64,000 nt of DNA from a virus (lineage: Duplodnaviria > Heunggongvirae > Uroviricota > Caudoviricetes), in IMG/VR virus record IMGVR_UViG_3300005613_000005, positions 27,213-91,212 of that record; one strand, given 5' to 3'. Shown here piece after piece: positions 28,541 through 55,070 of the stretch (position 1 is the stretch's first letter; each line of letters begins with the position of its first letter). The translations under genes and the position numbers were made by a program. The notes beneath the pieces are model-generated. The model saw only the letters and a list, made by a program, of their open reading frames with translations. It did not search any database and was not told where the DNA came from.

Positions 28541-28586
28541 TAGTGCTTTTTATGGGAATAACATGAGAAGAGTAAGGAGAAATTTT

Positions 28587-41480: not shown

Positions 41481-42182
41481 ATGGCTGAAAAGAACAATTT
41501 GAACGATAATGGAGATGAAACTTGGGTATACAAATTCGATGAAGAAGCAGCTCACAAATTCCGAGTTGACGTTAAGAACAAATCAAAGAGGGATCCCAAC
41601 GCGCCTATCATAGTCTACATCGACTCATACGGTGGAAACGTTGATGGCATGGCTAAGATGATAGATACCATGGACGAGATCCCCAATCCTATCATAACAG
41701 TATGCATGGGAAAATCTATGTCTGCTGGGGCTATCCTGTTGTCGCACGGTGACATGCGTTTCTGTTCAAAGAACAGCAGGATAATGATCCATGAGCTTTC
41801 AGCAGGGGCTTTTGGGAACGTTCGCGACATCGCCAACGATACCGATGAGTTGATGAGGATGAACAGGCATTGGATAGGTTTGCTGGCCAAGAACTGCTGC
41901 ATAAGCGGTGGTTACAACGGTATACGCAAAGTCATAAAAGACAACGACAACCAGAGCATCTATCTGGACGCTGTTATGGCAAAACAGTTCGGCATCGTCG
42001 ATTGCATCGGTGTTCCGACCACCAACGCCGCGGTCTTGTACGAGGTCCTGACGTTAAAAGAAAAAGAAAAGAAACACATGCGCATGGAAGACTTCGAGAA
42101 ACTCCAGAAGAAGATAGCAAAACAGGGTGCTAAGAAAAAAGCACGCAAGAAAAAAGCTACGAAAAAGAAAACTAAAAAATGA
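41481..42182 (+). CDS. ClpP-like serine protease (S14 family-like) with Lys-rich tail
   Basis: IVYIDSYGGNV...CMGKSMSAGAILLSHGD.RF...RIMIHEL matches ClpP core motifs. Confidence 0.6.
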   Translation: MAEKNNLNDNGDETWVYKFDEEAAHKFRVDVKNKSKRDPNAPIIVYIDSYGGNVDGMAKMIDTMDEIPNPIITVCMGKSMSAGAILLSHGDMRFCSKNSRIMIHELSAGAFGNVRDIANDTDELMRMNRHWIGLLAKNCCISGGYNGIRKVIKDNDNQSIYLDAVMAKQFGIVDCIGVPTTNAAVLYEVLTLKEKEKKHMRMEDFEKLQKKIAKQGAKKKARKKKATKKKTKK

Positions 42183-42189
42183 GGTGAGT

Positions 42190-42516
42190 ATGGCTAAATG
42201 GGATCATACGGTAATGGTTATCGAACCGCAGGACGTAGAGTGCGTCTATAAGTTCTGGGACAACTTCGGGTTCAAGATGTCTGATAGTCTCAAGGATGCA
42301 TTAGAGAATTTTAAAGCTGATCCTACTATCGTCACACAGCGTGAGTTAAGAAAACAACTTACAATAGCAACGACTGCCATCAAAGATGAGGCGTTGGCCG
42401 AACTCTTCAAACCTGTCCTAGAAGCCTGTCACGAGAAAGCCGTGGAGATGCAGTTTGAAGACGATATAGACGAGATGCTCCAAGTTGATCCAGACGAAGA
42501 AGGGTATAATAAGTAA
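42190..42516 (+). CDS. hypothetical protein
   Basis: GAGGTGAG SD; ATG 42190. Confidence 0.45.
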   Translation: MAKWDHTVMVIEPQDVECVYKFWDNFGFKMSDSLKDALENFKADPTIVTQRELRKQLTIATTAIKDEALAELFKPVLEACHEKAVEMQFEDDIDEMLQVDPDEEGYNK

Positions 42517-42672
42517 ATGAGTCTGATAATGGTTAGATTTTTAGTAATTATTGGGATGATTGTATTTTTCACTGTACTAGGAACCTCTATGGGATATGCT
42601 ATAGGGTATGAAAAAGCATATATCAAAGCTAAAACTAGTGAGCGAAGAAAAAAAGACCGTCGAAAAACCTAA
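42517..42672 (+). CDS. small membrane protein
   Basis: 51 aa with TM segment. Confidence 0.35.
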   Translation: MSLIMVRFLVIIGMIVFFTVLGTSMGYAIGYEKAYIKAKTSERRKKDRRKT

Positions 42673-42685
42673 AGAAGGAGAAAAC

Positions 42686-43540
42686 ATGAAATTATTTTTA
42701 TTATTGTGTATGCTGCTCGTGGGTACCAGCGCATTCGCCAAAAATGACAAGAAGCTCGACGTTGTTCTAAAAGATGATAACTTTTTTGCGGTTACTTCAG
42801 TCTTTACAGAACGTCTTTTAGAAGACTTCAATCGTAAAGTTATGACTTACGACGGCGATGAGCTCATCGTGTACATCGATAGCCCAGGAGGCAGCGTATT
42901 TTCTGTAGCGCGCATGGTATCTATAATGAGGTCATCTGAGGTTAAATTTACTTGCGTAGCTCGTTTCGCCGCTTCTGCCGCGTTCACGATGTTTCAAGCC
43001 TGCACCAACAGGTATATCTTGTACGATGGTATCATAATGCAGCACAATGCTTCTGGTATTTTCTGGGATGAATTTCCCAGGATCGAAACATTATATACCG
43101 CGATCAAAGATATAGTTACCGATATGGAAACACAGACAGCAAAAAGGATGAAGATGGAGTTCAAGGATTTCAAGGTGGCCATCAACAACAACCTGTGGTT
43201 GTCTAGGATCACCGCTCCAAAATACAACGCGATCGACGCCGTGATAAACACTATAAAATGCGAAGAGTCACTGATCAAGAAAACCATCACTAAAGCAGAA
43301 AGAAAATGCGGTTGGTTCAGCTGTTCGACTACCTATAAAAAATATTCAGCGTGCCCGCTGTTAACCCTTCCTCTTCCCGAACCTCCTAAAAAAGATAAAC
43401 CTGCTGATGATGGATGGTACGACGATGAATTCTACGATGGACATCCTTTATATCTTCCGTTTGATGAAAAAATCAACACGAACATCAAGAACTTCATGCA
43501 CATAGCCCCTTATACTATTAAAGATAAGATCATGAAATAA
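42686..43540 (+). CDS. secreted ClpP/S49-like serine protease paralog
   Basis: AAGGAG SD; signal peptide MKLFLLLCMLLVGTSAFA; LIVYIDSPGGSV...ARFAASAAFTMF...IIMQHN. Confidence 0.55.
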   Translation: MKLFLLLCMLLVGTSAFAKNDKKLDVVLKDDNFFAVTSVFTERLLEDFNRKVMTYDGDELIVYIDSPGGSVFSVARMVSIMRSSEVKFTCVARFAASAAFTMFQACTNRYILYDGIIMQHNASGIFWDEFPRIETLYTAIKDIVTDMETQTAKRMKMEFKDFKVAINNNLWLSRITAPKYNAIDAVINTIKCEESLIKKTITKAERKCGWFSCSTTYKKYSACPLLTLPLPEPPKKDKPADDGWYDDEFYDGHPLYLPFDEKINTNIKNFMHIAPYTIKDKIMK

Positions 43541-43571
43541 CTGATTAAAAATATCGAGCGGGTATAATAAA

Positions 43572-43600
43572 GGTACGGTTGAAAAATCGTACCTTTTTTT
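43572..43600 (+). terminator. rho-independent terminator
   Basis: GGTACGG..CGTACC + TTTTTTT. Confidence 0.5.
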
Positions 43601-43613
43601 ATATGGGGGATTT

Positions 43614-44900
43614 ATGAACGAACTCGATATCCTAGACTTGGTAGAAAACGCGATCGGCAAACAGAAAGAAGCTATCTTAAAAAAGCACAATAAGAACCAG
43701 AGGTTATTTGAGTTACTTGATGCAGCATTAAATTTCAAAAGAAAATTTTACATAAAGAAGTTTGATGACATGGTGACCGGAGTACAAAGCTATGTCCCGT
43801 CATTCCACGATCATTTCATGACATTGCTGACTGATCTAGAAACCAGGGAAATAGTCGGTAACGACGCTATTATACGAGTGACCAATCTGTTGCGAAGTGT
43901 TGGGCCGCAGCAGGCTAAATGGTACTCAAGGGTCATCCGCAAAGATCTTAAGATAGGGTGTAATTTAAGTACGGCTATCAAAGCAGGTTTCGAGATTCCA
44001 AAATTTGAGGTGCAACTCGCCAAAGACGGTAAGAAATGTAAGTGCATCGATAAAATTCTAAAGAACGGCGCGTTCTCGAGTCCCAAGTTTGATGGATACA
44101 GGTGCATCGCTATAATAGAAGATGGTGAGGCTAAATTATTATCTCGCAACGGTACCGTGTTCACCAACTTTCCATCGATAGAAAAGAGTTTAGTAGATAT
44201 GTGGTGGAGCGAAGAACACAACACCAGGTACATCTTCGATGGCGAGATAATGTCGGACGATTTCAACGCCATGCAGCAATCAGCGTTCGCTTCAAAACGC
44301 GGGACGACAGTAGGAGACGTTTCCTATTATATCTTTGACATGATCCCCATAACAGAATGGGAATCTAATGTGTTCACGACCAACGCTAAGGCTCGATATG
44401 AGCGCCTCGAACTCCTGTTTACATGGTCAGAATCAAAGATAAGAAGACTCAACATAACGAATTTAAAATTGGTTGAACACAAACCGGTTTCTACGATGGA
44501 CGAGATCCGGCAGATTGAACGAGAATACATAGAGAACGGTTTCGAGGGGGTGATGTTGAACCCAGATATCCCGTATTACAGGGGCGAAAAATCCAACAAG
44601 ATGTTGAAGTTCAAGACTATGAAATCGATGGACTGCGTAGTATTAGGAGTATATGAAGGTGAAAATGGTAAGAAATTTGAGGGAACATTGGGCGGTGTTA
44701 TAGTTCGTCAGGAAAATGGTATCGAATGTAAAGTTGGCAGTGGTTTTAACGAGATCAAAGGTTCATGGAAAGAGAGAGATGCTATATGGAGAAATCCGGA
44801 CGTGATAATCGGGAGAACGATAGAGGTAAAATATCAAGAAATAGGATCAGAAGGAAGGATGAGGTTTCCCGTGATCATGCGTTTTCGGGACGACAAGTAG
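43614..44900 (+). CDS. ATP-dependent DNA ligase
   Basis: motif I KFDGYR, III FDGEIM, IV EGVMLN, V LKFK. Confidence 0.7.
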   Translation: MNELDILDLVENAIGKQKEAILKKHNKNQRLFELLDAALNFKRKFYIKKFDDMVTGVQSYVPSFHDHFMTLLTDLETREIVGNDAIIRVTNLLRSVGPQQAKWYSRVIRKDLKIGCNLSTAIKAGFEIPKFEVQLAKDGKKCKCIDKILKNGAFSSPKFDGYRCIAIIEDGEAKLLSRNGTVFTNFPSIEKSLVDMWWSEEHNTRYIFDGEIMSDDFNAMQQSAFASKRGTTVGDVSYYIFDMIPITEWESNVFTTNAKARYERLELLFTWSESKIRRLNITNLKLVEHKPVSTMDEIRQIEREYIENGFEGVMLNPDIPYYRGEKSNKMLKFKTMKSMDCVVLGVYEGENGKKFEGTLGGVIVRQENGIECKVGSGFNEIKGSWKERDAIWRNPDVIIGRTIEVKYQEIGSEGRMRFPVIMRFRDDK

Positions 44901-45063
44901 TTACCCTGCGACGTACCCACACGCCTAATAACTGGGCCGTGTTCAGCGGTGACGTACAGATATCTCCGACTTGGTATGGGAACAAGTATCAGGTGATTGA
45001 TCAAGCCAAAGCGTGGATATCATCGTGGACTTGGGAATTGGAGATAGAAGACGAGGAGAAAGA

Positions 45064-45357
45064 ATGAGATACTTAATTTTAGTAAGTTTATTGTTGGTCA
45101 GCTGCAATGTGTCGACTTTCTTTAAAAGTGATCTGTTGTATTGTGCTGAAGAGTCCAGTATGAAAAGAACGTGCGTGAGAGTGATAGAGGGATATCGCGT
45201 CAACAGCCAAGAGATATTAAGTCTTGTCCCTTTGTTACACCAAAATACCGATAAGCAAAACGTAGAGTTCTGTCGCGCTGTGTTGAAGAACGGTAGGATA
45301 CTTGATTTTTCAGCACACTGTGATGATTTTTTTGAGTTTATACAGAAAGTGAGGTAA
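45064..45357 (+). CDS. lipoprotein-like protein
   Basis: LVSLLLVSCN lipobox; start trimmed to ATG 45064. Confidence 0.45.
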   Translation: MRYLILVSLLLVSCNVSTFFKSDLLYCAEESSMKRTCVRVIEGYRVNSQEILSLVPLLHQNTDKQNVEFCRAVLKNGRILDFSAHCDDFFEFIQKVR

Positions 45358-45359
45358 GT

Positions 45360-45575
45360 ATGTACAAATGTGAGAGTTGCGGTAAGACCACCGCGTTAAG
45401 TGAAAAAATGGAACGCGTCGTAACAGAACGTCGCGATCGAGTTTACACGGCTGTGGACAGGCGCGGTAGAGAATACGAGCAGGGTAGAGGCTGGGAGATC
45501 GTGAAAGAGATCGCCGTCTGCAAATCCTGTTTCAAAAAGTATAATAAAACTGATGAAAGTAATACTGACAACTGA
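45360..45575 (+). CDS. zinc-ribbon protein
   Basis: CESCG...CKSC. Confidence 0.45.
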   Translation: MYKCESCGKTTALSEKMERVVTERRDRVYTAVDRRGREYEQGRGWEIVKEIAVCKSCFKKYNKTDESNTDN

Positions 45576-46326
45576 TTTACACGAGGGATTTGATCATAAA
45601 ACAAACCGCATAAACGTCAAGATCATACATGAGATGGCCGAAGAGATCAAAAACGACCCTGACATCAAGGTCATGGTAATAACCGGTGATCTTGCTTCAC
45701 ACAAACAGAAACAATTTCCAAGAATATTAAAGATGCTGCGCTCCAAGATACGGATACCGATCGTGATCGTACGCGGCAATCATGACCTGTGGCAAAGGAT
45801 CAAGGGGAAGTACGATAGGAACGGTTCATGGATCAAAGCCAAACATCCTGAGATACAGACCATATACGATCAACAAAAGATATGGATGAAGGACCAGAGC
45901 GTCCATCATCTTGAAGAGAGCAACTTCGTCATCGATGATGTAGTTTTTGTAGGTTGGGATGGATGGTACCATTCTTTGTTCCCACCCACGAACGACGAGT
46001 ATCACATGATAAACTACACTGAAGGTATACGAACCACTGAATGGCTCACGAAACGAGCCGAGAAAGAGTTCGAAAGGGTCATATACGAAGATACCTACAA
46101 GTATCGCAAAGCGATAGCCGTGACACACATGTCACCGCTGCCCTCGAGTCCCGCGTACCAGGGACACGCGGCAAATCCCAAATTCCTACAGCATATTGTA
46201 AGCAAATATGATTATTTCCTGATAGGACACACGCATCAGCCCACCGATATGGTACTACAAAATTGCCGAATATTAAATGCGGGCAGCGATTATAACAAAC
46301 CACAATACATAATTTTTAAAGTATAA
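45553..46326 (+). CDS. calcineurin-like metallophosphoesterase (second copy)
   Basis: TDLHEG, GDLASH, RGNHD, GHTH motifs. Confidence 0.6.
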   Translation: MKVILTTDLHEGFDHKTNRINVKIIHEMAEEIKNDPDIKVMVITGDLASHKQKQFPRILKMLRSKIRIPIVIVRGNHDLWQRIKGKYDRNGSWIKAKHPEIQTIYDQQKIWMKDQSVHHLEESNFVIDDVVFVGWDGWYHSLFPPTNDEYHMINYTEGIRTTEWLTKRAEKEFERVIYEDTYKYRKAIAVTHMSPLPSSPAYQGHAANPKFLQHIVSKYDYFLIGHTHQPTDMVLQNCRILNAGSDYNKPQYIIFKV

Positions 46327-46375
46327 TAATAATTATGAAACAAAGATAATTTAAGTAAAAATAATAGGATAATTA

Positions 46376-46690
46376 ATGAGCGAGTTTAAAAAGTTTGATC
46401 AAGGAAAACCCAAGTTCAGCCTGATACCGCCAAAAGCACTGCGTTTAGTGGCACACATATTCACGATGGGCGAGAAAAAGTACGGTGCCTACAACCACAT
46501 GAAGGGTACGGACTGGGTCAGGTACTGGGACGCCGCGTCCAGGCACATGAACTCATGGTTGGACCAAGAAGACCTAGATCCTGAGTCAATGAAGAACCAC
46601 CTCGCCCACGCTATCGCCAGTCTCATGATAGAACTAGAGATGATATTACGAGATAAAGGAACAGATAACAGGTACAAAGATGAAGAATAA
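46376..46690 (+). CDS. conserved phage protein (KFSLIPP...YG..NW...DPES..HLAHA family)
   Basis: recognisable conserved phage family; function not assignable from sequence alone. Confidence 0.45.
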   Translation: MSEFKKFDQGKPKFSLIPPKALRLVAHIFTMGEKKYGAYNHMKGTDWVRYWDAASRHMNSWLDQEDLDPESMKNHLAHAIASLMIELEMILRDKGTDNRYKDEE

Positions 46691-46976
46691 GCGACAGATC
46701 AAAGTAGCGTGCCTGCAACGGTTGTTCGATCTCATCGACTGCTGCGACGATGTGGTAAATTTTCTGCTGGAAGAGAAGATAATAGACAAAGAACAGTTAA
46801 AAGACCTCAAGATAGAGTACAACAAAGCTGAATTCTTATACAAGATAATCAAGAAAGCGTTGGACGACGACAAATTATTGCTCGCCGATTTCACCTGGCA
46901 GGTGCTCCCGGACGAGAGAATAATGATAACGTTCGTGACCGAGCGCCAACGTCGCGTTTTCTCACACAACTACTAA
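46680..46976 (+). CDS. hypothetical protein
   Basis: 98 aa. Confidence 0.45.
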   Translation: MKNKRQIKVACLQRLFDLIDCCDDVVNFLLEEKIIDKEQLKDLKIEYNKAEFLYKIIKKALDDDKLLLADFTWQVLPDERIMITFVTERQRRVFSHNY

Positions 46977-47053
46977 GAGCATCGTTCGATTTTAAAAAAG
47001 TACAATATATTTAGAGATTGATATTTAAAAAACGTTTTTGTAAGGAGATTTTT

Positions 47054-47548
47054 ATGGACGCAATCGGTCAGAAACAAGCGGTTCTCAACGCCGTCAAGAA
47101 CATCCTTGGCAATTCTTTCGCATCAGGTGAGACCAACGTAAAAGAGGTTTTAACCTCAGATCAGCTCAACACACTGCGCGACAGAATATACGAGGGCGCG
47201 ATAGACGGTTCAATCGCGTACAACAAGGACACGTCTGATACCAAGGCAGTCCGCAGGTACGTCAACGGCATGATCGACAATCATCTCAGGAAATCGAAGG
47301 AGCTGAACGGGGGAAACATCTACAAGCCGGCGAACACCGGTGCAAAACGTGACGCTACTCTCAAGAACTTGAACAGGTTGCTCAAGAACTATGAGGAAGG
47401 AACTGACGAGTACGATCAGGTCAGCACGGCGATAACGAACCGTCATAACGAGCTAAAAACTATGAGATCAACCAAGAAAAAAGACACGGTGAAAAGTAAA
47501 GTTGATACTGACATAATTCCAGATGAGTTAGCCAGCATCATCGAATAA
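47054..47548 (+). CDS. MNQREAVY-family protein, divergent paralog 4
   Basis: MDAIGQKQAVLNAVKNIL...KPANTGAKRDATLKNLNRLLKNYEEGTDEYDQV...IPDEL parallels family blocks; AAGGAG SD. Confidence 0.5.
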   Translation: MDAIGQKQAVLNAVKNILGNSFASGETNVKEVLTSDQLNTLRDRIYEGAIDGSIAYNKDTSDTKAVRRYVNGMIDNHLRKSKELNGGNIYKPANTGAKRDATLKNLNRLLKNYEEGTDEYDQVSTAITNRHNELKTMRSTKKKDTVKSKVDTDIIPDELASIIE

Positions 47549-47576
47549 ACCCGTACAAGATACGAGGTTTATTCAG

Positions 47577-47617
47577 GCCCGGCAGTTTTCTCTCCCCCTT
47601 CGACTGCCGGGCTTTTT
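47577..47617 (+). terminator. rho-independent terminator
   Basis: GCCCGGCAG...CTGCCGGGC + TTTTT. Confidence 0.6.
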
Positions 47618-47635
47618 ACTGTAGGAGGTACACTT

Positions 47636-47971
47636 ATGACCTTAACGACAAATATACAATCCTTGAGAGCCCTTATAGGAATGCCTGATGGTGACGATTT
47701 TTACTCCGACGAGAACATCGTGCACCGCAAGCGCTTGCAAGCGGTCAGCGGTAGGATCTACTACGAGGTCGTGTTAAGCATGAAAGATGAAGAGCCCGTT
47801 GATAAAGATCTCATAAGTAGAAGATATCGCGAGCGTTTGTGCACGCTCCCGACCAAAGATCTGGAGTATATTTTGTGGGGGCATGAAGAAGGACTCGTAG
47901 TACGACGCGAGGACACTCTGGACGCTATACGTTCTGAGCTCACAGAACGAGGGGTTCTAAACGACGATTAA
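47636..47971 (+). CDS. hypothetical protein
   Basis: TAGGAGG SD. Confidence 0.5.
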   Translation: MTLTTNIQSLRALIGMPDGDDFYSDENIVHRKRLQAVSGRIYYEVVLSMKDEEPVDKDLISRRYRERLCTLPTKDLEYILWGHEEGLVVRREDTLDAIRSELTERGVLNDD

Positions 47972-48123: not shown

Positions 48124-48595
48124 TTATCGTTTCAAGACCTTTATGTAACTTGTCTAGTATATCATAGAAATTTTTCTTGAGATCTTTCTCTTTCTTTCGT
48201 TCTTTGAGCTGCCGTTTAGCTTCTTCATCACCGCGTATCGCCCATTCAGTAAGTCTAGCAGCGTTAGCACTGCTGACTTTCGGTTTATGCCCTTTCTCTT
48301 CTTTTACGACTGGAGCACCAACACCTATGCGAGCATCAGACGATCCCTTGCGTCCCAGCTGTGCCTGTGCCATCTGACCAGCGCGCAGATCTTTTATAGA
48401 CCGAGCACCGATCTTTGACTCGGCCGCCGCAGCTGAAGCTTTTATCTTCTTGGCCTTCTTCTCAGCTTCTTTGGTTTCTTTCTCGGACAGTTTTTGGACG
48501 CCTTTCTGAGGACCAGAGGGTCTTATCATTATCCGTCTTACCTTCATGAGGTCTTCGAGTTCCTGCAACGCTTTTCTTACACGAGACTTATCCAT
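48113..48595 (-). CDS. Lys-rich hypothetical protein
   Basis: 160 aa; GATATAAT -10 upstream on minus strand. Confidence 0.5.
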   Translation of the reverse strand: MDKSRVRKALQELEDLMKVRRIMIRPSGPQKGVQKLSEKETKEAEKKAKKIKASAAAAESKIGARSIKDLRAGQMAQAQLGRKGSSDARIGVGAPVVKEEKGHKPKVSSANAARLTEWAIRGDEEAKRQLKERKKEKDLKKNFYDILDKLHKGLETIKNA

Positions 48596-48705
48596 GACAA
48601 TCTCCTAGTATGTTAAAAGAATATATTAAGATTATATCAGTTTTTAAGGTTAGAAAAATTTTTTCCAGATACGTGAAAAATTGCAGTTAGTTAAAAATAA
48701 AAATA

Positions 48706-48714
48706 TGGTATAAT
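48706..48714 (+). promoter_or_regulatory. extended -10 promoter TGGTATAAT for tRNA array
   Basis: ~120 nt upstream of first tRNA. Confidence 0.4.
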
Positions 48715-48836
48715 TAACCCTATGAAACAAACATTGCGCTCCTTATATTTATCGTCATGTAGACCTGATCACAGGTCCAGCGTAGTGTTCTATTTTAGTA
48801 ATAATAGATAATTAAATAAAGTTCACTACTTAGCTT

Positions 48837-48912
48837 GAGTCGGTGGTGATAACGGTAACACGTCAGGCTGTTAACCTGTAAGATCTAGGTTCGATTCCTA
48901 GCCGGCCCGCCA
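48837..48912 (+). tRNA. tRNA-Asn(GTT)-like, possible pseudo-tRNA
   Basis: cloverleaf with A2:C71 acceptor mismatch and weak anticodon stem; loop ctGTTaa; encoded CCA. Confidence 0.4.
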
Positions 48913-48935
48913 AAATTGAATAGGAGATTTAACGA

Positions 48936-49012
48936 GCCACCGTAGCTCAGAATGGCAGAGCGCGGGCCTGAAGAGCCCGGTGTCGGAGTTTCGATACCTC
49001 CCGGTGGCACCA
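48936..49012 (+). tRNA. tRNA-Phe(GAA)
   Basis: acceptor GCCACCG/CGGTGGC, loop ctGAAga, T-loop, CCA. Confidence 0.8.
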
Positions 49013-49046
49013 GGTATTTGAAAAACGAATAGTAGAATGAGATTGT

Positions 49047-49342
49047 GGAGACGGCAAGACCGTTACTGGGAGGTGAAAACCCCTGGAGGATAAAGTCCGG
49101 ACACCGAAGAGCAGCGTAGTGGCTAACGGCCACCCGTCAGGAAGACGAGGACTAGTGGAACAGAGACGAGCCAGTTAAGTCTGGAATGAAACGGCTAAAC
49201 TCTACGCGGTGCAACGCCAAATAGGCTAGCTATTGACCTATGCTCGGGGGACGTTGGCGGGTAGGCGGCAGTGAGCTGGAAGGTAACGACCAGCCCAGAT
49301 AGATTACGGTCGAGGTACAGAATCCGGCTTATTACCGTCTCC
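49047..49342 (+). ncRNA. rnpB: RNase P RNA (bacterial type A-like, reduced)
   Basis: GGAGGATAAAGTCCGGAC (P4 5' strand), GTGGAACAGAGACGAGCC, CGGTGCAACGCCAAATAGGC, GGGTAGGC..CAGTGAGC, GTACAGAATCCGGCTTAT (P4 3' strand); P1 pairing GGAGACGG/CCGTCTCC. Confidence 0.75.
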
Positions 49343-49370
49343 ATCCGGCCAGGAACAATCTCAAAACAAA

Positions 49371-49471
49371 GGAAGACTTATCCGAAAGATTCTGGGTAGC
49401 GGAGACTGTCTTGAAAACAGTTTGGTGAAATATAAGTAGCCGTCAGGGTTCGAATCCCTGGTCTTCCGCCA
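49371..49471 (+). tRNA. tRNA-Ser(TGA), long-arm type, unusually long (101 nt)
   Basis: acceptor GGAAGAC/GTCTTCC, loop ctTGAaa, long variable arm, CCA. Confidence 0.55.
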
Positions 49472-49473
49472 AA

Positions 49474-49557
49474 GGGGTATCTGCGGAGTGGGATCCGCGC
49501 GAGCCTGTAGAGCTCGTGCCGCTGCGCTAGGAGGTTCGATTCCTTAATACCCCACCA
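49474..49557 (+). tRNA. tRNA-Tyr(GTA)
   Basis: acceptor GGGGTAT/ATACCCC, loop ctGTAga, 13-nt variable arm. Confidence 0.7.
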
Positions 49558-49560
49558 GAC

Positions 49561-49636
49561 GCTCACGTAGCCCAACGGGAGAGGCAGCAGCTTCAAACGC
49601 TGAAGAGTGTTGGTTCGAATCCAACCGTGAGTACCA
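49561..49636 (+). tRNA. tRNA with anticodon CAA (Leu-reading) but short variable arm
   Basis: 76 nt, loop ttCAAac, 5-nt variable region, discriminator A. Confidence 0.5.
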
Positions 49637-49637
49637 A

Positions 49638-49714
49638 GCGGAGGTAACCCAACAGGAAGAGGTAGCAGGCTTAAACCCTGTTCAGCATGGGTTCAAATCC
49701 CATCCTCCGCACCA
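49638..49714 (+). tRNA. tRNA with anticodon TAA (Leu-reading), short variable arm
   Basis: acceptor GCGGAGG/CCTCCGC, loop ctTAAac. Confidence 0.55.
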
Positions 49715-49715
49715 C

Positions 49716-49788
49716 GCCTCGGTGGTCTAACAGATAAGGCACTGGTCTTCTAAGCTAATTGATGTGGGTTCGACTCCTACCTGAGACA
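49716..49788 (+). tRNA. tRNA-Arg(TCT)
   Basis: loop ctTCTaa; C2:A71 mismatch and weak anticodon stem; no encoded CCA. Confidence 0.45.
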
Positions 49789-49792
49789 CTAT

Positions 49793-49882
49793 GGAAGGTA
49801 AACTGGCATGGTGCCAGGCTTGCCTGCTAAGCAATGCGCGCTCTTATACGGGCGTATGGTTCGACTCCATTGCCTTCCGCCA
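49793..49882 (+). tRNA. tRNA-Ser(GCT)
   Basis: 90 nt, loop ctGCTaa, long variable arm, CCA. Confidence 0.7.
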
Positions 49883-49973
49883 AGTCTATTTAAAAATATA
49901 GTAAAACAACAATATGCATAATTATGTGCATCAACGGCTGTTTGAACAGCAATGGTAACAGAAAGTAGACATT

Positions 49974-50297
49974 ATGTCTAAAATTAAAGTTAAATTTGAA
50001 GAGCCTAGTTTTTGTAGTTACGACAATGTTTGGAAAATTTCATGGACTATAAACGGACGCAGAACTAATTCTTTCAGTAGTCGTGGCAAAAGAATAGGCC
50101 AGACTATCTCGCCTAAACAAATAGCAAATGAATATCGAGAGGCATTAAAAAGAGGACAAATTGTAGTTGATTTTTTAACTCAAAAAATCACCCGCAAACA
50201 AGCTATCAATAATTTAAAAGACCTGCGATTTCTATGCCCTAAAAACCAAACATCACATTTATTAACATTAGCAGAATTTGCTTTAAATTTACGTTAA
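49974..50297 (+). CDS. hypothetical protein inside tRNA array
   Basis: 107-aa AT-rich ORF between tRNA subclusters. Confidence 0.4.
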   Translation: MSKIKVKFEEPSFCSYDNVWKISWTINGRRTNSFSSRGKRIGQTISPKQIANEYREALKRGQIVVDFLTQKITRKQAINNLKDLRFLCPKNQTSHLLTLAEFALNLR

Positions 50298-50298
50298 T

Positions 50299-50376
50299 TG
50301 GTGTCCTCGACCGGATTTGAACCGGTGTCTCCGGAGTGAAAGTCCGATATCCTAGACCTGACTAGACGACGAGGAC
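50299..50376 (-). tRNA. tRNA-Glu(TTC), opposite strand
   Basis: rc GTCCTCG...ctTTCac...CGAGGAC-A-CCA. Confidence 0.75.
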
Positions 50377-50377
50377 C

Positions 50378-50455
50378 TGGTACTCGGGAGTGGACTTGAA
50401 CCACCGACCTCTGCCTTATCAGAGCAGCGCTACTAACCAACTGAGCTACCCGAGC
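50378..50455 (-). tRNA. tRNA-Ile(GAT), opposite strand
   Basis: rc GCTCGGGTAGCTCAGTTGGTTAG...ctGATaa...GGTTCAAGTCC. Confidence 0.8.
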
Positions 50456-50614
50456 ATGTTCGTTTCTGTTTACAGATTGTATGGGATAACGGGTGCGCGT
50501 TTACGCAACAGACAACTCAACGCACACCTTACATTCGATCTCAATAATAATAAGTTCAAGTGTACGTTTCATCATTAACCCATTATACCACACTTTGTTA
50601 GGTATAAATAATAT

Positions 50615-50812
50615 ATGGATAAGATAAGTAAGTGCGATAAACATCCTAAGTATAATGGATCGAAGAAACCCAGGACTGATTGCGATCAGTGTTGGAAGAT
50701 ATATTTGAAAAAACAAGAACGCAAGAAACGCGTGCCGATCAGACCGACCAAAGTGATACCAGACAAGACCAAGTACACGCGCAAGAAGAAACATAAGAAA
50801 AAAGAGGAGTGA
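50615..50812 (+). CDS. hypothetical basic protein
   Basis: 65 aa Lys-rich. Confidence 0.45.
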   Translation: MDKISKCDKHPKYNGSKKPRTDCDQCWKIYLKKQERKKRVPIRPTKVIPDKTKYTRKKKHKKKEE

Positions 50813-50814
50813 GT

Positions 50815-51093
50815 ATGTCAGTGACAGTAAGTTATCTACTCTCAATGGAAAAAAGTTTAAAAGCCAGGTTAGGCCAACTCAAAGAACTAAGGAGCGAGGT
50901 CTCAACGCTCGAGAGATGGGGCGACAGGGACAAGATCAAAGAACCGCAGTACGATGTAAAGGCGGTAGACAAGATGATAAGCGACATCAACAAGGTCCTG
51001 TTCGAGATCGACCAGAAGATCAAGGAGAGCAACGCTCGCACAAAAATTAAGATTAACGTAGACTATAACGAGTTAATGTCAGAGATCAAGTAA
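50815..51093 (+). CDS. hypothetical coiled-coil protein
   Basis: ATG 50815 after GAGGAG. Confidence 0.45.
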   Translation: MSVTVSYLLSMEKSLKARLGQLKELRSEVSTLERWGDRDKIKEPQYDVKAVDKMISDINKVLFEIDQKIKESNARTKIKINVDYNELMSEIK

Positions 51094-51298
51094 GCGATTA
51101 CTTGCATCCACGACATAGAAGAGGACTGACTTCGATGTCGAGAGAAGAACGTTCCACACTAATGCTGGACGCGTGGTATGACCCCGCATAAAACATTGTT
51201 GTTGATCAGGGGTGCTCACAAATTGTCCGTTGATTGTGGTTGGTTGTTGTCTTTAGTTCTTCTCGTCCTCTTTTTTTTATCACTTAATAAAAATTATA

Positions 51299-51307
51299 TG
51301 GTATAAT
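51299..51307 (+). promoter_or_regulatory. extended -10 promoter TGGTATAAT for second tRNA block
   Basis: upstream of 51500 tRNA block. Confidence 0.4.
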
Positions 51308-51499
51308 GTATTTTATGATTACTAACTTTATAAATCTCATAGTTCAGATACTGAAAGGAACATGTCAAGGCGTGGATACCAACGCCATGGTTCCTTGTCG
51401 TGTGCGTGCTGCCCGACCTATGCGACATATAAAGGCGCCATGGCGTAAGTAATCAAAATCTAGTAAGCAAATCAAATTAAATTTAATAGGTTTTGACGA

Positions 51500-51575
51500 G
51501 GGCTGGTGGTGATAACGGCCAACACGCCGCGCTTGCACCGCGGAGATCAGGGTTCGATTCCCTGCCGGTCCACCA
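51500..51575 (+). tRNA. tRNA-Ala(TGC)
   Basis: acceptor GGGCTGG/CCGGTCC (two G:U), loop ctTGCac. Confidence 0.7.
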
Positions 51576-51612
51576 AGATTTTTGACAACTGAATAGGTAG
51601 ATCATAAAACGA

Positions 51613-51687
51613 TGGGGAATAGTGCAATGGCTAGCACGACGGGCTTTGAACCCGTTAGTGGTGGTTCGAATCCACCTTCCCCAACCA
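51613..51687 (+). tRNA. tRNA-Gln(TTG)
   Basis: U1:A72, loop ctTTGaa. Confidence 0.75.
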
Positions 51688-51688
51688 T

Positions 51689-51764
51689 GCGAGTGTAGCT
51701 CACCGAGAAGAGCGTCGGTCTTCCAAACCGAAGGCAGCGGGTGCAAGTCCCGCCTCTCGCTCCA
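51689..51764 (+). tRNA. tRNA-Gly(TCC)
   Basis: loop ctTCCaa; one acceptor mismatch. Confidence 0.65.
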
Positions 51765-51765
51765 T

Positions 51766-51842
51766 GCCAGAGTAGCCCAATTGGAAGAGGCATACGGCTT
51801 AGACCCGTAGTGTTGTGAGTTCGAATCTCACCTCTGGTACCA
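51766..51842 (+). tRNA. tRNA with anticodon TAG (Leu-reading), short variable arm
   Basis: acceptor GCCAGAG/CTCTGGT, loop ctTAGac. Confidence 0.55.
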
Positions 51843-51843
51843 A

Positions 51844-51920
51844 CTGAGTGTAGCGCAGTCTGGTAGCGCGCCTGGCCTGGGCCCAGGAGGTCGGAGGTTC
51901 GAATCCTCCCACTCAGACCA
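51844..51920 (+). tRNA. tRNA-Pro(TGG)
   Basis: acceptor CTGAGTG/CACTCAG, loop ccTGGgc. Confidence 0.75.
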
Positions 51921-51929
51921 AGTAAACGA

Positions 51930-52004
51930 TGGCGCTTGGTGTAACAGATAGCATATCAGGCTACGAACCTGAAGATGAGGGTGCAATTCCTTCAGTGCCA
52001 ACCA
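51930..52004 (+). tRNA. tRNA-Arg(ACG)
   Basis: U1:A72, loop ctACGaa. Confidence 0.7.
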
Positions 52005-52011
52005 TATATAT

Positions 52012-52086
52012 GCCCGCGTGACCGAGTAGCTTAGGACACGGACTGCAAATCCGTGCACGCTGGTGCAAATCCAGCCGCGGGCTCCA
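52012..52086 (+). tRNA. tRNA-Cys(GCA)
   Basis: acceptor GCCCGCG/CGCGGGC, loop ctGCAaa. Confidence 0.7.
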
Positions 52087-52087
52087 C

Positions 52088-52163
52088 AGACGAGTAGCTC
52101 ACCGAGAAGAGCGCTAGCCTTACAAGCTAGAGGCAGTGGGTGCGAGTCCCTCCTCGTCTACCA
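52088..52163 (+). tRNA. tRNA-Val(TAC)
   Basis: A1:U72, loop ctTACaa. Confidence 0.65.
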
Positions 52164-52164
52164 T

Positions 52165-52244
52165 GGGCGTGTATCGGCTTACTCTTATAAGGTATAGAAA
52201 CCGTAATTGGAGACATGGAGGTTCGAGTCCTCCCACGCCCACCA
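52165..52244 (+). tRNA. atypical tRNA-like gene (anticodon undetermined)
   Basis: perfect acceptor GGGCGTG/CACGCCC and T-arm but no canonical D/anticodon arms. Confidence 0.35.
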
Positions 52245-52245
52245 C

Positions 52246-52319
52246 GCTCCATTAGTTCAGTGGCAGAACTGCTGTCTTGTAAACAGCGTACAGAGGTTCG
52301 ATTCCTCTATGGAGCTCCA
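52246..52319 (+). tRNA. tRNA-Thr(TGT)
   Basis: acceptor GCTCCAT/ATGGAGC, loop ctTGTaa. Confidence 0.8.
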
Positions 52320-52320
52320 G

Positions 52321-52394
52321 GGGCGGTTAGTGTAACGGCAGCACGTCGGCTTCCAAACCCGACAGTTTGGGTTCAAATCCTAAGCCGCCCGCCA
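52321..52394 (+). tRNA. tRNA-Trp(CCA)
   Basis: loop ttCCAaa. Confidence 0.7.
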
Positions 52395-52398
52395 ACGA

Positions 52399-52473
52399 GG
52401 TGCTATAGTGTAGTGGTTATCACGCCGGACTGTCTATCCGGAGACCGGGGTTCGATTCCCCGTAGCACCGCCA
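52399..52473 (+). tRNA. tRNA-Asp(GTC)
   Basis: acceptor GGTGCTA/TAGCACC, loop ctGTCta. Confidence 0.8.
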
Positions 52474-52492
52474 GATAAGGTATAATATCAAC

Positions 52493-52762
52493 GTGATAAC
52501 AACGATCAGTAAAAAAATTTTAGATATACTTTTAAACGTGACCGCAACGAACAGTCATGAAAAATGTCCTTACTGCGAACGAACTTTAAAGTACGACAGG
52601 ATAGTTGAGTGCGATATATACGAATCCGTTCATCCTACCAACTACGGTATGTGGTTTACGTTCACGTATAAAAAATGCCCGTGCAACTACGGCCCTTCTA
52701 CTGTAAGCAATCACTTGATCATCGATCATCTTCTATATAAATTAGGTATCAGGTACACGTAG
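52493..52762 (+). CDS. hypothetical Cys-rich protein inside tRNA array
   Basis: 89-aa ORF (CPYC...CPC); TATAAT upstream. Confidence 0.4.
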   Translation: MITTISKKILDILLNVTATNSHEKCPYCERTLKYDRIVECDIYESVHPTNYGMWFTFTYKKCPCNYGPSTVSNHLIIDHLLYKLGIRYT

Positions 52763-52800
52763 TCAAATTTGAGTTTTTAAACATATTTAAAGACCTAGAT

Positions 52801-52875
52801 GTGACTATAGTGTAACGGTCAGCACGAGAGGTTGTGGTCCTCTAAGTGAGGGTTCGAGTCCCTCTAGTCACCCCA
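52801..52875 (+). tRNA. tRNA-His(GTG)
   Basis: loop ttGTGgt; discriminator C73; no encoded G-1. Confidence 0.75.
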
Positions 52876-52944
52876 GGTCAATAAAAAATTTCCGATCGAA
52901 CGGGGGAAATCTGCAGCTTGGAAATTATACGGTATAATATGTAT

Positions 52945-53020
52945 GGCGGGATAGAGCAGTGGTCAGCTCACAGGTCTCATAAGCCTGGCGTCGGTGGTTC
53001 GAATCCACCTCCCGCTACCA
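52945..53020 (+). tRNA. tRNA-Met(CAT) (elongator-type, or Ile-lysidine)
   Basis: loop ctCATaa; lacks initiator hallmarks. Confidence 0.7.
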
Positions 53021-53051
53021 AATTATCCATTTTTACAAGTATAATTAAAAA

Positions 53052-53423
53052 ATGAAAAAACAGATTATCTTTCAGGACGACTACGACGAGTTCAAGCTCA
53101 ATTTTTGGAGCAACGGTAAAGTAACCACCGTAATAAACTCCTCTGTTTTCAGCTCTCGCTTTTTTTACTTTCTTTTAAATCCCTTCTTGATATTACGATG
53201 GAAACTAAACGACGGTAAGGTTTTTATCCAATATTCGTTAGCAACCCGCGTAATATTTAAGGTATGGTCTATCTTGAACAAAGAGTTCAAGGAAGAATGG
53301 TTAGGTTGGAAAGAAATAAGCCAATGGATGGAAGTCGATGATCCAACTACTCATGACATCAAGAAAGCTTATGACGAGTATGCGAACGATACTATAGAAC
53401 AGCAGATACTGGACGTACGATGA
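53052..53423 (+). CDS. hypothetical protein
   Basis: 123 aa. Confidence 0.5.
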   Translation: MKKQIIFQDDYDEFKLNFWSNGKVTTVINSSVFSSRFFYFLLNPFLILRWKLNDGKVFIQYSLATRVIFKVWSILNKEFKEEWLGWKEISQWMEVDDPTTHDIKKAYDEYANDTIEQQILDVR

Positions 53424-53623
53424 AGAAATCGATAGGGCAATACATATTCATAGACCCAGAAGATCTACCTGATTCACAACACCTTAAAACTACCATAGAT
53501 CGCCTAGAAAAAGACATAGAAGTGTTCCAGCGCCTGAAGAACGACAAGTGGCCGATCGAACATCTCAGGTCGGTTCTGAGCTACCTTAAACTACTGGTCC
53601 AAAAACAGAAGGAGAGAAGATGA
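53420..53623 (+). CDS. hypothetical protein
   Basis: 67 aa. Confidence 0.45.
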   Translation: MKKSIGQYIFIDPEDLPDSQHLKTTIDRLEKDIEVFQRLKNDKWPIEHLRSVLSYLKLLVQKQKERR

Positions 53624-53826
53624 TGGGACGATTACTGTGCTTGATTGGTTTTCACGCTTATGTCCCAGACAAAAAGTACGGCGACGGCTGGGAGATATGC
53701 GCTCGCTGTTCGCAGCGACGTCTGGTTATACGGTGTATGTGGTACGATGACTATAAGAAACTCCCTGACGATGTTAAGGCTAAGGGTAATTTCGTAGGTT
53801 TACCTGACGAATCGGAGGATGTATGA
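53620..53826 (+). CDS. Cys-rich small protein
   Basis: 68 aa. Confidence 0.45.
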   Translation: MMGRLLCLIGFHAYVPDKKYGDGWEICARCSQRRLVIRCMWYDDYKKLPDDVKAKGNFVGLPDESEDV

Positions 53827-54266
53827 AAAAGAAAGCTATCATAGTTGACCTGGACGGAACCTTGTGCAACACCAAGCATCGCAACCATATACTGGAAACA
53901 AATCCCGGCAACTGGGACAAGTTCAACGAGGGTATCCCGTTTGATATCCCCAACCCGTGGTGCATGGAAATAGTAGAGAACTTCGCGAAAGAAGGGTATC
54001 ACATCCTTTTCGTCACCGGCAGAAACTCCAACACACACGACGCTACGGAGCAATGGTTAAGAACTTACCTGAACCCGACCGTCCAATGGGACCTGCACAT
54101 GAGACCCGACCACAACTACATCGCAGATACCATAATTAAAACAAACATCTATTTCACTAAGATACTGCCATTCTACGACGTGGTGTTCTGCGTCGACGAC
54201 AAACGTTCCATATGCGATCTGTGGAGAAGTTTAGGACTAGTAGCCCTTCACTGCGAAGATTACTGA
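53823..54266 (+). CDS. HAD-superfamily phosphatase (polynucleotide 3'-phosphatase / nucleotidase-like)
   Basis: motif I IIVDLDGTL (DxDGT); FVTGR; C-terminal CVDDK. Confidence 0.6.
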   Translation: MKKKAIIVDLDGTLCNTKHRNHILETNPGNWDKFNEGIPFDIPNPWCMEIVENFAKEGYHILFVTGRNSNTHDATEQWLRTYLNPTVQWDLHMRPDHNYIADTIIKTNIYFTKILPFYDVVFCVDDKRSICDLWRSLGLVALHCEDY

Positions 54267-55042
54267 TTCTCGGGGATTATATCTTCGCCCGACTCGTCGA
54301 TGATTATGTCGGGATCAAACTCTTCTTTCTTAGGTACTGTAACATCTATCTTGACTATCCCTTTACGGTTCGTACGCTTATATAAATCTTTGATCAGTTT
54401 CTTGAGTTCTTTTTCGTCGGGCGCATTCGACATCTTAGCTATCCTTGATCTTCGTAAGTTACCCCGCTTCTTGGGTTGAATTATGTTGTCGGCGATTCCC
54501 AACGACACTGCTTCACTCGCGGTTATGTAGACGTCACGCTGCAAGATGTCGTTCCAGAAACTTTCCGGCATATGTGAGTTCTCTGCGAATAGTTTGTCAA
54601 GCTTGCTTTGCAGGTCCTTAGTTGATTTAGCTTCGATCTGTACGTCGGTATGCTTACCCTCTATCTCGTCCAACCCGTCGTGCAACATTATCTCAGTGTT
54701 GGGATATAAGTTCCTTTCATCACATATCGCCATAAGCCAGGTCGCCGCTGATGCTATCTGTCCGCCGCCGAAAAACTTAACCTGACAAGGGCAAGACAGT
54801 ATGACGTCGACCAGACGCAGCATCGACGTGGCACTACCACCGCACGACTGTATATGTAACTCTATAGGTTTCTTAGGATTGTCTGATACTAATAGGTGGA
54901 TAGCTCGAACAGCTTTCTCAACGGTGTTCCAACTGAACTCTTCGTGTCCCTCATCGTTCAACACGCCAAAATATATGCGCCGCATCTTACGATCAAAGTT
55001 TCTCTCAAAAATCTCCTCGACACGGCTGTTTTTATCAGACAT
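54260..55042 (-). CDS. ClpP-like serine protease, third paralog
   Basis: start trimmed to M27 (MSDKNSRV) which has AGGAG + TGGTATAAT upstream; IELHIQSCGGSATSMLRLVDVI...TEIMLHDG. Confidence 0.55.
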   Translation of the reverse strand: MSDKNSRVEEIFERNFDRKMRRIYFGVLNDEGHEEFSWNTVEKAVRAIHLLVSDNPKKPIELHIQSCGGSATSMLRLVDVILSCPCQVKFFGGGQIASAATWLMAICDERNLYPNTEIMLHDGLDEIEGKHTDVQIEAKSTKDLQSKLDKLFAENSHMPESFWNDILQRDVYITASEAVSLGIADNIIQPKKRGNLRRSRIAKMSNAPDEKELKKLIKDLYKRTNRKGIVKIDVTVPKKEEFDPDIIIDESGEDIIPENQ

Positions 55043-55061: not shown

Positions 55062-55070
55062 ATTATACCA
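55062..55070 (-). promoter_or_regulatory. extended -10 promoter (TGGTATAAT on minus strand)
   Basis: rc of 55062..55070 followed by AGGAG and ATG 55042. Confidence 0.4.

Follow-up and report, generated by a model that had tools for sequence, protein, structure and literature searches.

Three diverged ClpP-like proteins encoded by an uncultured myovirus, one of which carries a predicted signal peptide

ClpP is the textbook ATP-dependent, self-compartmentalised protease of the cytoplasm and of organelles, and it couples the stacking of its rings to catalysis through an Arg-Asp pair. ClpP-like prohead proteases of phages lack the gating loops and need no ATPase, and the envelope proteases of the same superfamily (S49, NfeD and S41) use Ser-Lys chemistry. 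Listeria ClpP1, with a Ser98-His123-Asn172 triad, is inactive alone and is activated in a ClpP1/ClpP2 hetero-tetradecamer (PMC9257651), and in Atu_ph07 and other large phages ClpP-like genes are annotated outside the head modules, along with several Clp components (PMC6102473). Here we describe three ClpP-fold genes in 64,000 nucleotides of an uncultured myovirus (positions 27,213 to 91,212 of IMG/VR record IMGVR_UViG_3300005613_000005; this whole stretch is referred to as the window, and all coordinates are those of the window). They are named A (41481-42182, plus strand), B (42686-43540, plus strand) and C (54260-55042, minus strand), and related loci are given L-numbers. The explanation that we favour, by a modest margin over even odds, is that they belong to three diverged ClpP-fold lineages, of which A and C would be gate-less proteins of the cytoplasm and B an exported peptidase of the cell envelope. 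Multiple ClpP-like genes, and ClpP-like genes outside the head module, are already known from large phages; the new part is the predicted exported, virus-associated lineage.

The three open reading frames (ORFs) are all present at the positions and on the strands given in the original prediction, and each scores above the gathering threshold of the Pfam CLP_protease profile (PF00574, 20.2 bits). A, a predicted cytoplasmic protein of 233 aa, matches with 94.2 bits (E 1.2e-26, residues 36-177), B, a precursor of 284 aa, with 46.7 bits (E 4.4e-12, residues 58-188), and C, a predicted cytoplasmic protein of 260 aa, with 101.9 bits (E 4.9e-29, residues 35-190). When all 354 six-frame ORFs of the window were searched with hidden Markov models (HMMs) of the families, exactly these three were found to be of the ClpP fold. 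Phmmer searches against PDB sequences returned ClpP proteolytic subunits only, the best match being human ClpP for A (E 1.3e-18, Ser and His aligned) and Coxiella ClpP for C (E 9e-18; Ser, His and Asp aligned). By sequence, all three are ClpP-fold, MEROPS S14-like proteins. The core motifs had been predicted as IDSxGG, a GxxxSxG-like region around the active Ser, and IM.H. This description holds only roughly, the motifs being YIDSYGG, GKSMSAG and IMIH in A, YIDSPGG, FAASAAF and IMQH in B, and HIQSCGG, GQIASAA and IMLH in C; the IDS motif is not kept in C, and the Ser region of B is without flanking Gly. The start codon of A (ATG 41481) is preceded by GGGAG and that of C (ATG 55042) by AGGAG, the ORF of C lying in a frame that opens at 55120. 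The ORF of B is nested in a longer frame that opens at 42608, and the public gene call begins it at GTG 42638 (300 aa), which still leaves the hydrophobic segment N-terminal. From the sequence, ATG 42686 seems the better start, with AAGGAG 6 nt before it and the stop of a small upstream ORF just passed.

The three proteins had also been described as paralogs. This holds in the sense of a shared ClpP fold, and does not hold in the sense of recent duplicates: pairwise identity is 24-25% and covers the core only (BLASTP), and each protein scores 324-414 bits with the HMM of its own family and 22-58 bits with those of the other two. On these comparisons A, B and C represent three lineages of the ClpP (S14) fold that are associated with viruses and diverged long ago. 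The A and C families comprise at least 290 and at least 320 metagenomic proteins, respectively, and recur jointly on five contigs (174594, 177578, 24749, 162297 and 157173 bp, the last being the phage described here). The first homolog sample of B contained 67 metagenomic proteins, and a B profile searched against 1.84 billion cluster representatives (clusters at 50% identity) matched 1,158 proteins at E<=1e-30. Nearly all of the best 150 of these, apart from a few fragments, span the protein from near the N-terminus through a Cys-bearing C-terminal extension.

When 185,579 species genomes were scanned with the B pattern, there were among the matches listed only ordinary ClpP cores with 20-28% identity, which is suggestive of a family that is apparently confined to viruses. 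Positions 40-56 kb of the window had no megablast match among 50,697 phage records, and tblastn of A, B and C against phage records gave nothing above 36%, 26% and 32% identity, respectively; at this level of sequence comparison, no cultured phage has the A, B or C families. In our literature search we found no description of an exported S14-type ClpP lineage this large and restricted to viral contigs. All six of the longer B-type contexts resemble phage replication regions. The neighbours of the B-type gene there are DNA ligase, DNA polymerase B, dNMP kinase, dUTPase, lysozyme or Holliday-junction resolvase (in L004, L005 and L175 it adjoins DNA polymerase B, dNMP kinase, lysozyme or Holliday-junction resolvase), and in five of the six contexts a second, cytoplasmic ClpP-like gene lies near it.

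Some of these sequences carry unexpected taxonomic labels. B-type proteins with the Cys extension occur in IMG/VR bins of giant-virus metagenome-assembled genomes (MAGs; L092, L095, L097-L099 and L103), which are either large phages that were mis-binned or a sign of families common to eukaryotic giant viruses. Two ClpP-like proteins of Fadolivirus (BFVD A0A7D3V576 and A0A7D3QV32) rank among the closest structures to B and C, and a Fadolivirus protein comes second among the viral structures that match B. The locus L002 is a 56-kb contig (GCA_013375485.1, JABXKB010000001.1) deposited as part of a “Candidatus Lokiarchaeota archaeon” MAG; with its phage-like gene content, it probably derives from a phage and was mis-binned.

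Catalytic residues were mapped by aligning the proteins to E. coli ClpP and to ClpPs of known structure, and then on the family alignments. The nucleophile and the triad His are Ser81 (41721-41723) and His104 (41790-41792) in A, Ser97 (42974-42976) and His120 (43043-43045) in B, all on the plus strand, and Ser98 (54749-54751) and His121 (54680-54682) in C, on the minus strand. Both residues are kept in 100% of the sequences of the A family (n=120), the C family (n=120), the B family (n=67) and a wider B set (n=128, made up of 127 distant representatives and B itself), and the GG motif of the oxyanion hole is strictly kept in A, B and their relatives. All three proteins had been taken for ClpP-like serine proteases, and the alignment bears this out for Ser and His; the Asp of the triad is present in C alone, the residue in its place being Ser159 in A and Asn169 in B. 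In C the triad is completed by Asp170 (54533-54535, minus strand), which is paired with Arg169; within the C family, 119 of 120 sequences have the Asp and all 120 the Arg.

The third triad position of the A family is Asp in 90 sequences, Glu in 26, Asn in three and Ser in one (n=120), and A is this sole bearer of Ser. Its Ser159 codon (AGC, 41955-41957, plus strand) is two changes from an Asp codon, the conserved Arg that should precede it is Gln158, and the nearest relatives form a series from NQD (L002) through NQN (P0069) to NQS (A itself). As judged from the alignment, A is a degenerate member of a catalytically canonical family. In the B family the same position is Asn in 28 sequences, Glu in 19, Asp in 18 and Thr in two (n=67), while the wider set (n=128) has 105 Asp, 12 Glu and eight Asn. 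B, with Asn169 (AAC, 43190-43192, plus strand), is by the same alignments part of an Asn subclade of an otherwise catalytically canonical family.

Aligned to E. coli ClpP, A and B start at strand β1, without the axial N-terminal hairpin and loops and without helix αA. C keeps helix αA, with about 10 residues before it, and also lacks the N-terminal gating hairpin. Correspondingly, the Pfam CLP_protease profile of 182 positions is entered at position 42 by A, 47 by B and 24 by C. The best scores with the NCBIfam ClpP models (TIGR00493/PRK00277, cut-offs 228-361 bits) are 93 bits for A, 39 for B and 92 for C, well under half of what the cut-offs demand. Among several E. coli ClpP residues that we take to form the ATPase-docking pocket, mapped by hand from the alignments, Tyr62 is replaced by His63 and Met92 by Gly in C, and Phe82 by a nearly invariant Glu66 in A. 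All three proteins are extended at the C-terminus. The tail of A is coiled and, as had been noted from the sequence, rich in Lys: 15 of its last 25 residues are Lys or Arg, a feature conserved in the family (median 44% Lys/Arg in the last 25). The extension of C is a strongly conserved stretch of about 70 aa (PKKRGNLR...) with two predicted helices and an acidic end; the AlphaFold2 (AF2) model of C has a predicted local distance difference test score (pLDDT) of 81.5, rising above 90 in the core.

B begins with MKLFLLLCMLLVGTSAFA, followed by KND, and this N-terminus has the n-h-c layout of a Sec signal peptide, with MK, the hydrophobic segment LFLLLCMLLVGTS and the site AFA/K, where cleavage is predicted after residue 18 (signal peptide 42686-42739, plus strand). 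The call was made by a heuristic on the hydrophobic N-terminus, not by a trained predictor. A hydrophobic N-terminus is found in 91% of the 67 B homologs and 89% of a second B sample, and in 0 of 120 A and 0 of 120 C proteins. The signal peptide of the original prediction is upheld, as a predicted feature, by the layout, the cleavage site and this conservation across the family, and B is probably exported, as read from its sequence. The β-rich C-terminal extension of B carries two invariant Cys, Cys192 (43259-43261, plus strand) and that of the motif Cys223-Pro-Leu (43352-43360, plus strand), which are kept in 66 of 67 and 128 of 128 sequences and would be consistent with an extracytoplasmic disulfide. 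The AF2 model of B, built from 65 sequences, has a mean pLDDT of 87.9 and is structured to about residue 230, and the last ~55 residues are predicted to be disordered. A Foldseek search of this model against the PDB returned Mycobacterium tuberculosis (Mtb) ClpP2 and other ClpPs (Listeria, S. aureus, Thermus) at ~2.0 Å over ~166 aa (E 6e-14), and S49 or NfeD structures were not among the top PDB matches. These matches cover ~165 core residues, and the Cys-bearing β extension, which was not searched by itself, was not recovered in them.

A and B are encoded in one run of plus-strand genes, in the order A, an acidic ORF of 108 aa (p108), a membrane ORF of 51 aa, B, a hairpin terminator and a DNA ligase. 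The p108 ORF (42190-42516) is directly downstream of A and has no Pfam or PHROG match; by tblastn it has 49% identity to counterparts in L002 and L003, and 28% in L008. An ORF of 104-111 aa directly follows A in four of four contexts, although in L007 the 111-aa ORF after the A homolog has no tblastn match to p108 and corresponds to it by position and size only. The small membrane ORF (42517-42672; 47 aa in the public call) is hydrophobic in its N-terminal two thirds and very basic at its C-terminus, ends 13 nt upstream of B and has no tblastn match in the other loci. The hairpin (43569-43596, plus strand), which resembles an intrinsic terminator with a 12-bp stem and a T-run, lies 29 nt past the stop codon of B. 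The 3-kb region contains five terminator-like sites versus 1.8 expected, and this one has the longest stem; it is a putative end, seen in the sequence, to a transcription unit of A, p108, the membrane ORF and B before the ligase gene.

In L002, the closest relative, the order is A, a 104-aa ORF, B and ligase. In L007 and L008 the A gene and an ORF of ~110 aa are followed, before the ligase, by genes that include an S8 subtilase with a signal peptide and a membrane-anchored Trypsin_2 protein, and B is absent from the slot. Since B and the S8 and Trypsin_2 proteins share this slot, the clade seems consistently to encode envelope-directed proteases beside A, B being one variant.

C was originally predicted to have its own promoter, and a putative one was indeed found, the extended -10 element TGGTATAAT at 55062-55070 (minus strand), 20 nt upstream of the start codon. 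The class of sites to which it belongs, TGnTATAAT (mostly TGGTATAAT), occurs 15 times in the window versus 3.5 expected, and 0 of 100 shuffled sequences reach 15; because this enrichment is significant, the putative promoter of C belongs to a real class of sites. Among the sites are those at 1223, 4673 (minus), 8822 (minus), 37229, 48706, 51299, 55062 (minus) and 59071. Many, on either strand, immediately precede a gene or a tRNA array, and two lie inside ORFs, at 2425-4635 (tail sheath) and 45553-46326 (metallophosphoesterase). From its sequence and frequency, TGnTATAAT is probably the main extended -10 promoter class of the phage. A scan with the sigma-70 consensus showed no enrichment of promoter-like sites around either ClpP locus, and the element of C has no -35 match. 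Divergent from C are two plus-strand genes identified by Pfam and PHROG, a MoxR-type AAA+ ATPase (56355-57503) and a protein with a DUF2201 metallopeptidase-like N domain and a VWA domain (57570-59051). In the IMG/VR locus L096 (411-5761), DUF2201 (50% identity) and MoxR (53%) are followed by a B-type gene and then a C-type gene at 51% identity. We treat MoxR and DUF2201 as context for C, as they are kept together by neighbourhood only. Two related Cys-rich HNH-like ORFs of ~208 aa flank these genes, one just upstream of A (40808-41437, plus strand) and one between C and the MoxR gene (55656-56282, minus strand); a homolog in L100 has 46% identity, and they are possibly mobile homing endonucleases.

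We infer export, oligomeric state, activity, partners and substrates from the fold, residues, family structure, synteny and N-terminal features described above. If A, B and C form ClpP-like rings, the pores would be ungated, because all three lack the N-terminal gating hairpin (A and B also αA), and the rings could cleave unfolded or loosely folded substrates without the help of an ATPase. C, with an intact triad and the Arg-Asp pair, would be a competent cytoplasmic peptidase, a gate-less ring in need of no unfoldase. A, which has lost the Arg-Asp pair (Gln158-Ser159), may work by itself as a peptidase of reduced activity or, by analogy to Listeria ClpP1, may depend on a partner ring such as C. 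The polybasic tail could direct A to nucleic acid, as a polyanion, or to an acidic partner such as p108 or the acidic tail of C.

B would be made as a precursor, exported by Sec, cut after Ala18 and stabilised by a Cys192-Cys223 disulfide, and would then work in the cell envelope without ATP, with the triad Ser97-His120-Asn169; the family appears built for catalysis, because most of its members have Asp or Glu at the third position. Together with a secreted S8 subtilase encoded elsewhere in the window (30496-31167, plus strand; signal peptide MRLWIVVFLLTLSLDA; Pfam Peptidase_S8, E 1e-17), B could form a set for envelope-directed proteolysis, expressed alongside the genes of the replication region, which are presumed, B included, to be expressed before the late genes. 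Its purpose would most plausibly be to remodel or destroy proteins of the host envelope, such as receptors, routes of superinfection or defences located there. A fuller joint reading, to which we give somewhat less than even credence, is that B represents a large, apparently virus-restricted family of Sec-exported, disulfide-stabilised, ATPase-free S14 barrels, encoded in a replication-region operon and, in concert with secreted subtilases and trypsin-like proteases, cleaving proteins of the host envelope, while A and C would form a phage-private, gate-less hetero-complex of the ClpP1/ClpP2 kind.

If this is correct, a viral lineage has put the ClpP fold behind a signal peptide, so that the barrel is repurposed as an ATP-independent envelope protease. 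This would be a new class of phage effector acting on the host periplasm or outer membrane, with a bearing on superinfection exclusion, receptor destruction and counter-defence. The pair of A and C, one of them with a naturally degraded triad, would be a simple viral model for impaired subunits in ClpP hetero-rings.

Several points weigh against this account. The mechanism is drawn entirely from sequence comparison and monomer models, and for B the cleavage of the signal peptide, the disulfide and the type of host envelope are predictions. With Asn169 in B and Ser159 in A, either protein could be weakly active or inactive. The A-C hetero-complex is argued solely from co-occurrence, complementary charge of the tails and analogy. 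Restriction of the B family to viruses falls short of proof, the matches in cellular genomes being known only among the matches listed. In addition, the best PHROG match of both A (E 2.6e-25) and C (E 2.7e-24) is phrog_94, “head maturation protease”, and the head module of the phage lies outside the inspected sequence, which leaves ~59 kb of the contig uncovered.

These last two points belong to the strongest of the alternatives, which we nevertheless regard as unlikely: that A or C is a head-maturation (prohead) protease acting on scaffold or capsid, with its C-terminal extension as a capsid-targeting or scaffold-like segment. The phrog_94 match of A runs past the protease core (residues 8-225), the absence of gating loops and of a need for ATPase would be as in known ClpP-like prohead proteases, and the NCBIfam model Clp_rel_HeadMat (NF045542) is matched by A, B and C. 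However, these matches (49.1, 43.7 and 58.7 bits, respectively) are far below the cut-off of 120 bits and, for A and C, below the scores with cellular ClpP models, and we take the “head maturation protease” labels that PHROG gives to A, B and C to reflect the common fold. The original prediction had already placed the three genes outside the structural module visible in the window, and so they are: they sit in a region of replication and nucleotide metabolism, with ribonucleotide reductase (RNR), ThyX-like, HNH, DNA ligase, PNKP phosphatase and MoxR genes as neighbours, and in the contexts examined A and C are never beside portal or capsid genes. That two cytoplasmic proteases are conserved together is not accounted for by a single task in head maturation. 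In Myxococcus phage Mx1, the closest cultured relative by tail sheath, a separate 1,239-aa “putative prohead protease” is encoded between the portal and major capsid protein (MCP) genes, while the Clp-like gene is beside the primase-helicase. The 1,239-aa protein has no Pfam match at E<=0.01, so that the label given by its depositors could not be confirmed, and the Mx1 portal, MCP, terminase and “prohead protease” have no tblastn match in the inspected parts of the source contig. From the contexts examined, a prohead role for A, B or C is unlikely.

Less probable still is a genuinely ATP-dependent role, in which C, perhaps with A as the second ring, would be a ClpP core that captures the host unfoldase ClpX, ClpA or ClpC and thereby redirects the AAA+ proteolysis of the host during infection. 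In favour of this, helix αA, the complete triad and the Arg-Asp sensor are all present in C, the highest scores of A and C are those with the cellular ClpP models, hetero-tetradecamers with one ATPase-binding ring are known from Listeria and Mycobacterium (PMC9257651), and other large phages have several Clp components (PMC6102473). Against this, the same ClpP models are matched with at most 93 bits, where 228-361 are required, the N-terminal hairpin required for functional coupling is absent from A, B and C, and residues of the presumed docking pocket are changed in C (His63 and Gly) and in A (Glu66) by the hand mapping. In the window there is no ClpX- or ClpA-like gene, the sole AAA+ protein being of MoxR type.

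Alternatively, A and/or B could be catalytically dead decoys or poison subunits, with A, for example, co-assembling with host ClpP heptamers in an anti-host or anti-defence role, which we consider improbable. Host Clp and Lon proteases are known targets of modulation by phages, A has neither the catalytic Asp nor the Arg of the stacking sensor and stands at the far end of the NQD, NQN, NQS series as the only Ser among 120, and in B an Asn takes the place of the Asp or Glu found in most family members. However, retained catalysis can be argued because the Ser, the His and the oxyanion GG are strictly conserved in A, B and their relatives, and an Asn-triad ClpP1 is active within its complex (PMC9257651). 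B, moreover, could not meet host ClpP if it is exported, as predicted.

The original prediction had suggested instead that B, as a secreted S49-type or NfeD-like protease, would act with an SPFH/Band-7 protein (31392-32624, plus strand; phrog_11908, E 2.7e-55). This protein has an N-terminal membrane anchor after MKK and is probably on the envelope side, judging from its sequence, so that an envelope-facing position is predicted both for it and for B with its signal peptide; the pairing of NfeD with stomatin is a known arrangement, and NfeD1b_N is matched weakly, with 12.6-21.9 bits (A 21.9, B 12.6; cut-off 40). SppA_dom is matched with 16-19 bits (A 18.7, B 16.3; cut-off 155), and neither Peptidase_S49 nor the NfeD C-terminal domain is matched by A, B or C at E<=1. 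The SPFH gene is directly preceded by that of the S8 subtilase and lies ~10 kb and ~15 ORFs from B, and no SPFH gene was found in 18 related loci, whose flanks of 6-10 kb are too short to decide. We dismiss this proposal as very improbable, as B has no OB-fold or transmembrane (TM) domain, its family has an invariant His (67/67 and 128/128) and no invariant Lys and thus no Ser-Lys dyad, its fold search gives ClpP only, and although the exported proteins of the phage may be functionally connected, nothing ties B specifically to the SPFH protein.

Exact protein matches place the window on a metagenomic contig of 157,173 bp (ENA ERZ27256772, k141_2301005). A minus-strand tail module includes the tail sheath gene (2425-4635; phrog_279) and a virion structural protein, with the tube and tape-measure genes just beyond the start of the window (L009). 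The plus-strand block around A and B includes an RNR large subunit with an intein (37337-39976; Intein_splicing and LAGLIDADG_3 within Ribonuc_red_lgC), a ThyX-like protein, an ATP-dependent DNA ligase, a metallophosphoesterase and a PNKP phosphatase, and a downstream extension (L010) adds further nucleotide-metabolism genes out to ~72 kb in window-equivalent coordinates. The intein that interrupts the RNR bears a LAGLIDADG homing endonuclease. Between the A-B locus and C lies an array of 22 tRNAs (48837-53020), within which is an RNase P RNA of compact bacterial class A (49047-49346, plus strand; Rfam RF00010, 179.6 bits versus a gathering threshold of 100), the full RF00010 model being matched in only 300 nt. 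Because the RNase P RNA lies within the tRNA array, the phage seems to carry a ribozyme for maturing its own tRNAs. A NUDIX-domain protein of 518 aa (6401-7957, minus strand) is encoded in the virion and tail block upstream of the sheath gene; Mx1 likewise has a 1,479-aa “NUDIX hydrolase” (24404-28843) in its virion and tail block, which is an unusual placement for a NUDIX protein. From 9000 to 30000 of the window there are only small ORFs, none above ~240 aa, and within 12000-16000 a 4-kb segment has 52% GC versus ~40% elsewhere.

Mx1 (169.6 kb) is the best cultured match by tail sheath (30% identity over 94% of the sheath) and also has a “Clp protease-like protein” (WNM70285.1). This protein of 187 aa, encoded beside the primase-helicase in the replication module, has Ser, His and Asp and a basic C-terminal tail resembling that of A, and is 27% identical to C and 26% to A. 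It is the one Clp-like copy in the ~162 kb of Mx1 examined, in which no exported B-type gene was detected. The head-maturation proteases (Clp_rel_HeadMat NF045542; phrog_94, 2976 and 1684), which include the best PHROG matches of A, B and C, resemble the three in viral origin, the ClpP fold, the absence of gating loops and, often, C-terminal extensions. They are described as ATPase-independent, a property that is only proposed for A, B and C, and the three differ from them in scoring below the cut-off, in not lying between portal and capsid genes, and in being three copies, one of them predicted to be exported.

With ClpP itself (S14), A, B and C share the Ser, the His and the GG oxyanion motif at the same positions and the handle helix αE, C having in addition the Asp and the Arg-Asp stacking sensor, and the model of B superposes at ~2 Å over ~165 residues on the ClpPs of Mtb, Listeria and S. 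aureus. Identity, however, is 20-28%, all three carry additional C-terminal sequence, conservation of the ATPase-docking pocket is poor, A and B are without the triad Asp, and B is predicted to be exported. The ClpP1/ClpP2 systems of Listeria monocytogenes and Mycobacterium tuberculosis are alike in having several diverged ClpP genes per genome. The impaired triad of LmClpP1 is paralleled by Ser-His-Asn in B and Ser-His-Ser in A, and C alone keeps elements that may be able to face an unfoldase. They differ in that B would be in another compartment, most relatives of A have Asp or Glu, no cognate unfoldase is encoded nearby, and any co-assembly of A, B and C is hypothetical.

Two further systems are relevant to B. 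TepA of B. subtilis is a ClpP-fold protein linked to export, and the viral structures that best match B carry the UniProt name “Clp protease proteolytic subunit / TepA”. TepA was considered as a functional model for B and rejected, because it is described as cytoplasmic (PMC12445088) while B is predicted to be exported. SppA and SohB (S49) and NfeD differ from B in having a Ser-Lys dyad, membrane anchors and, in NfeD, an OB-fold, where B has Ser-His(-Asp/Glu/Asn) and a predicted cleavable signal peptide. They nevertheless provide the precedent for an ATP-independent ClpP-like fold on the periplasmic or membrane side, which is the location predicted for B.

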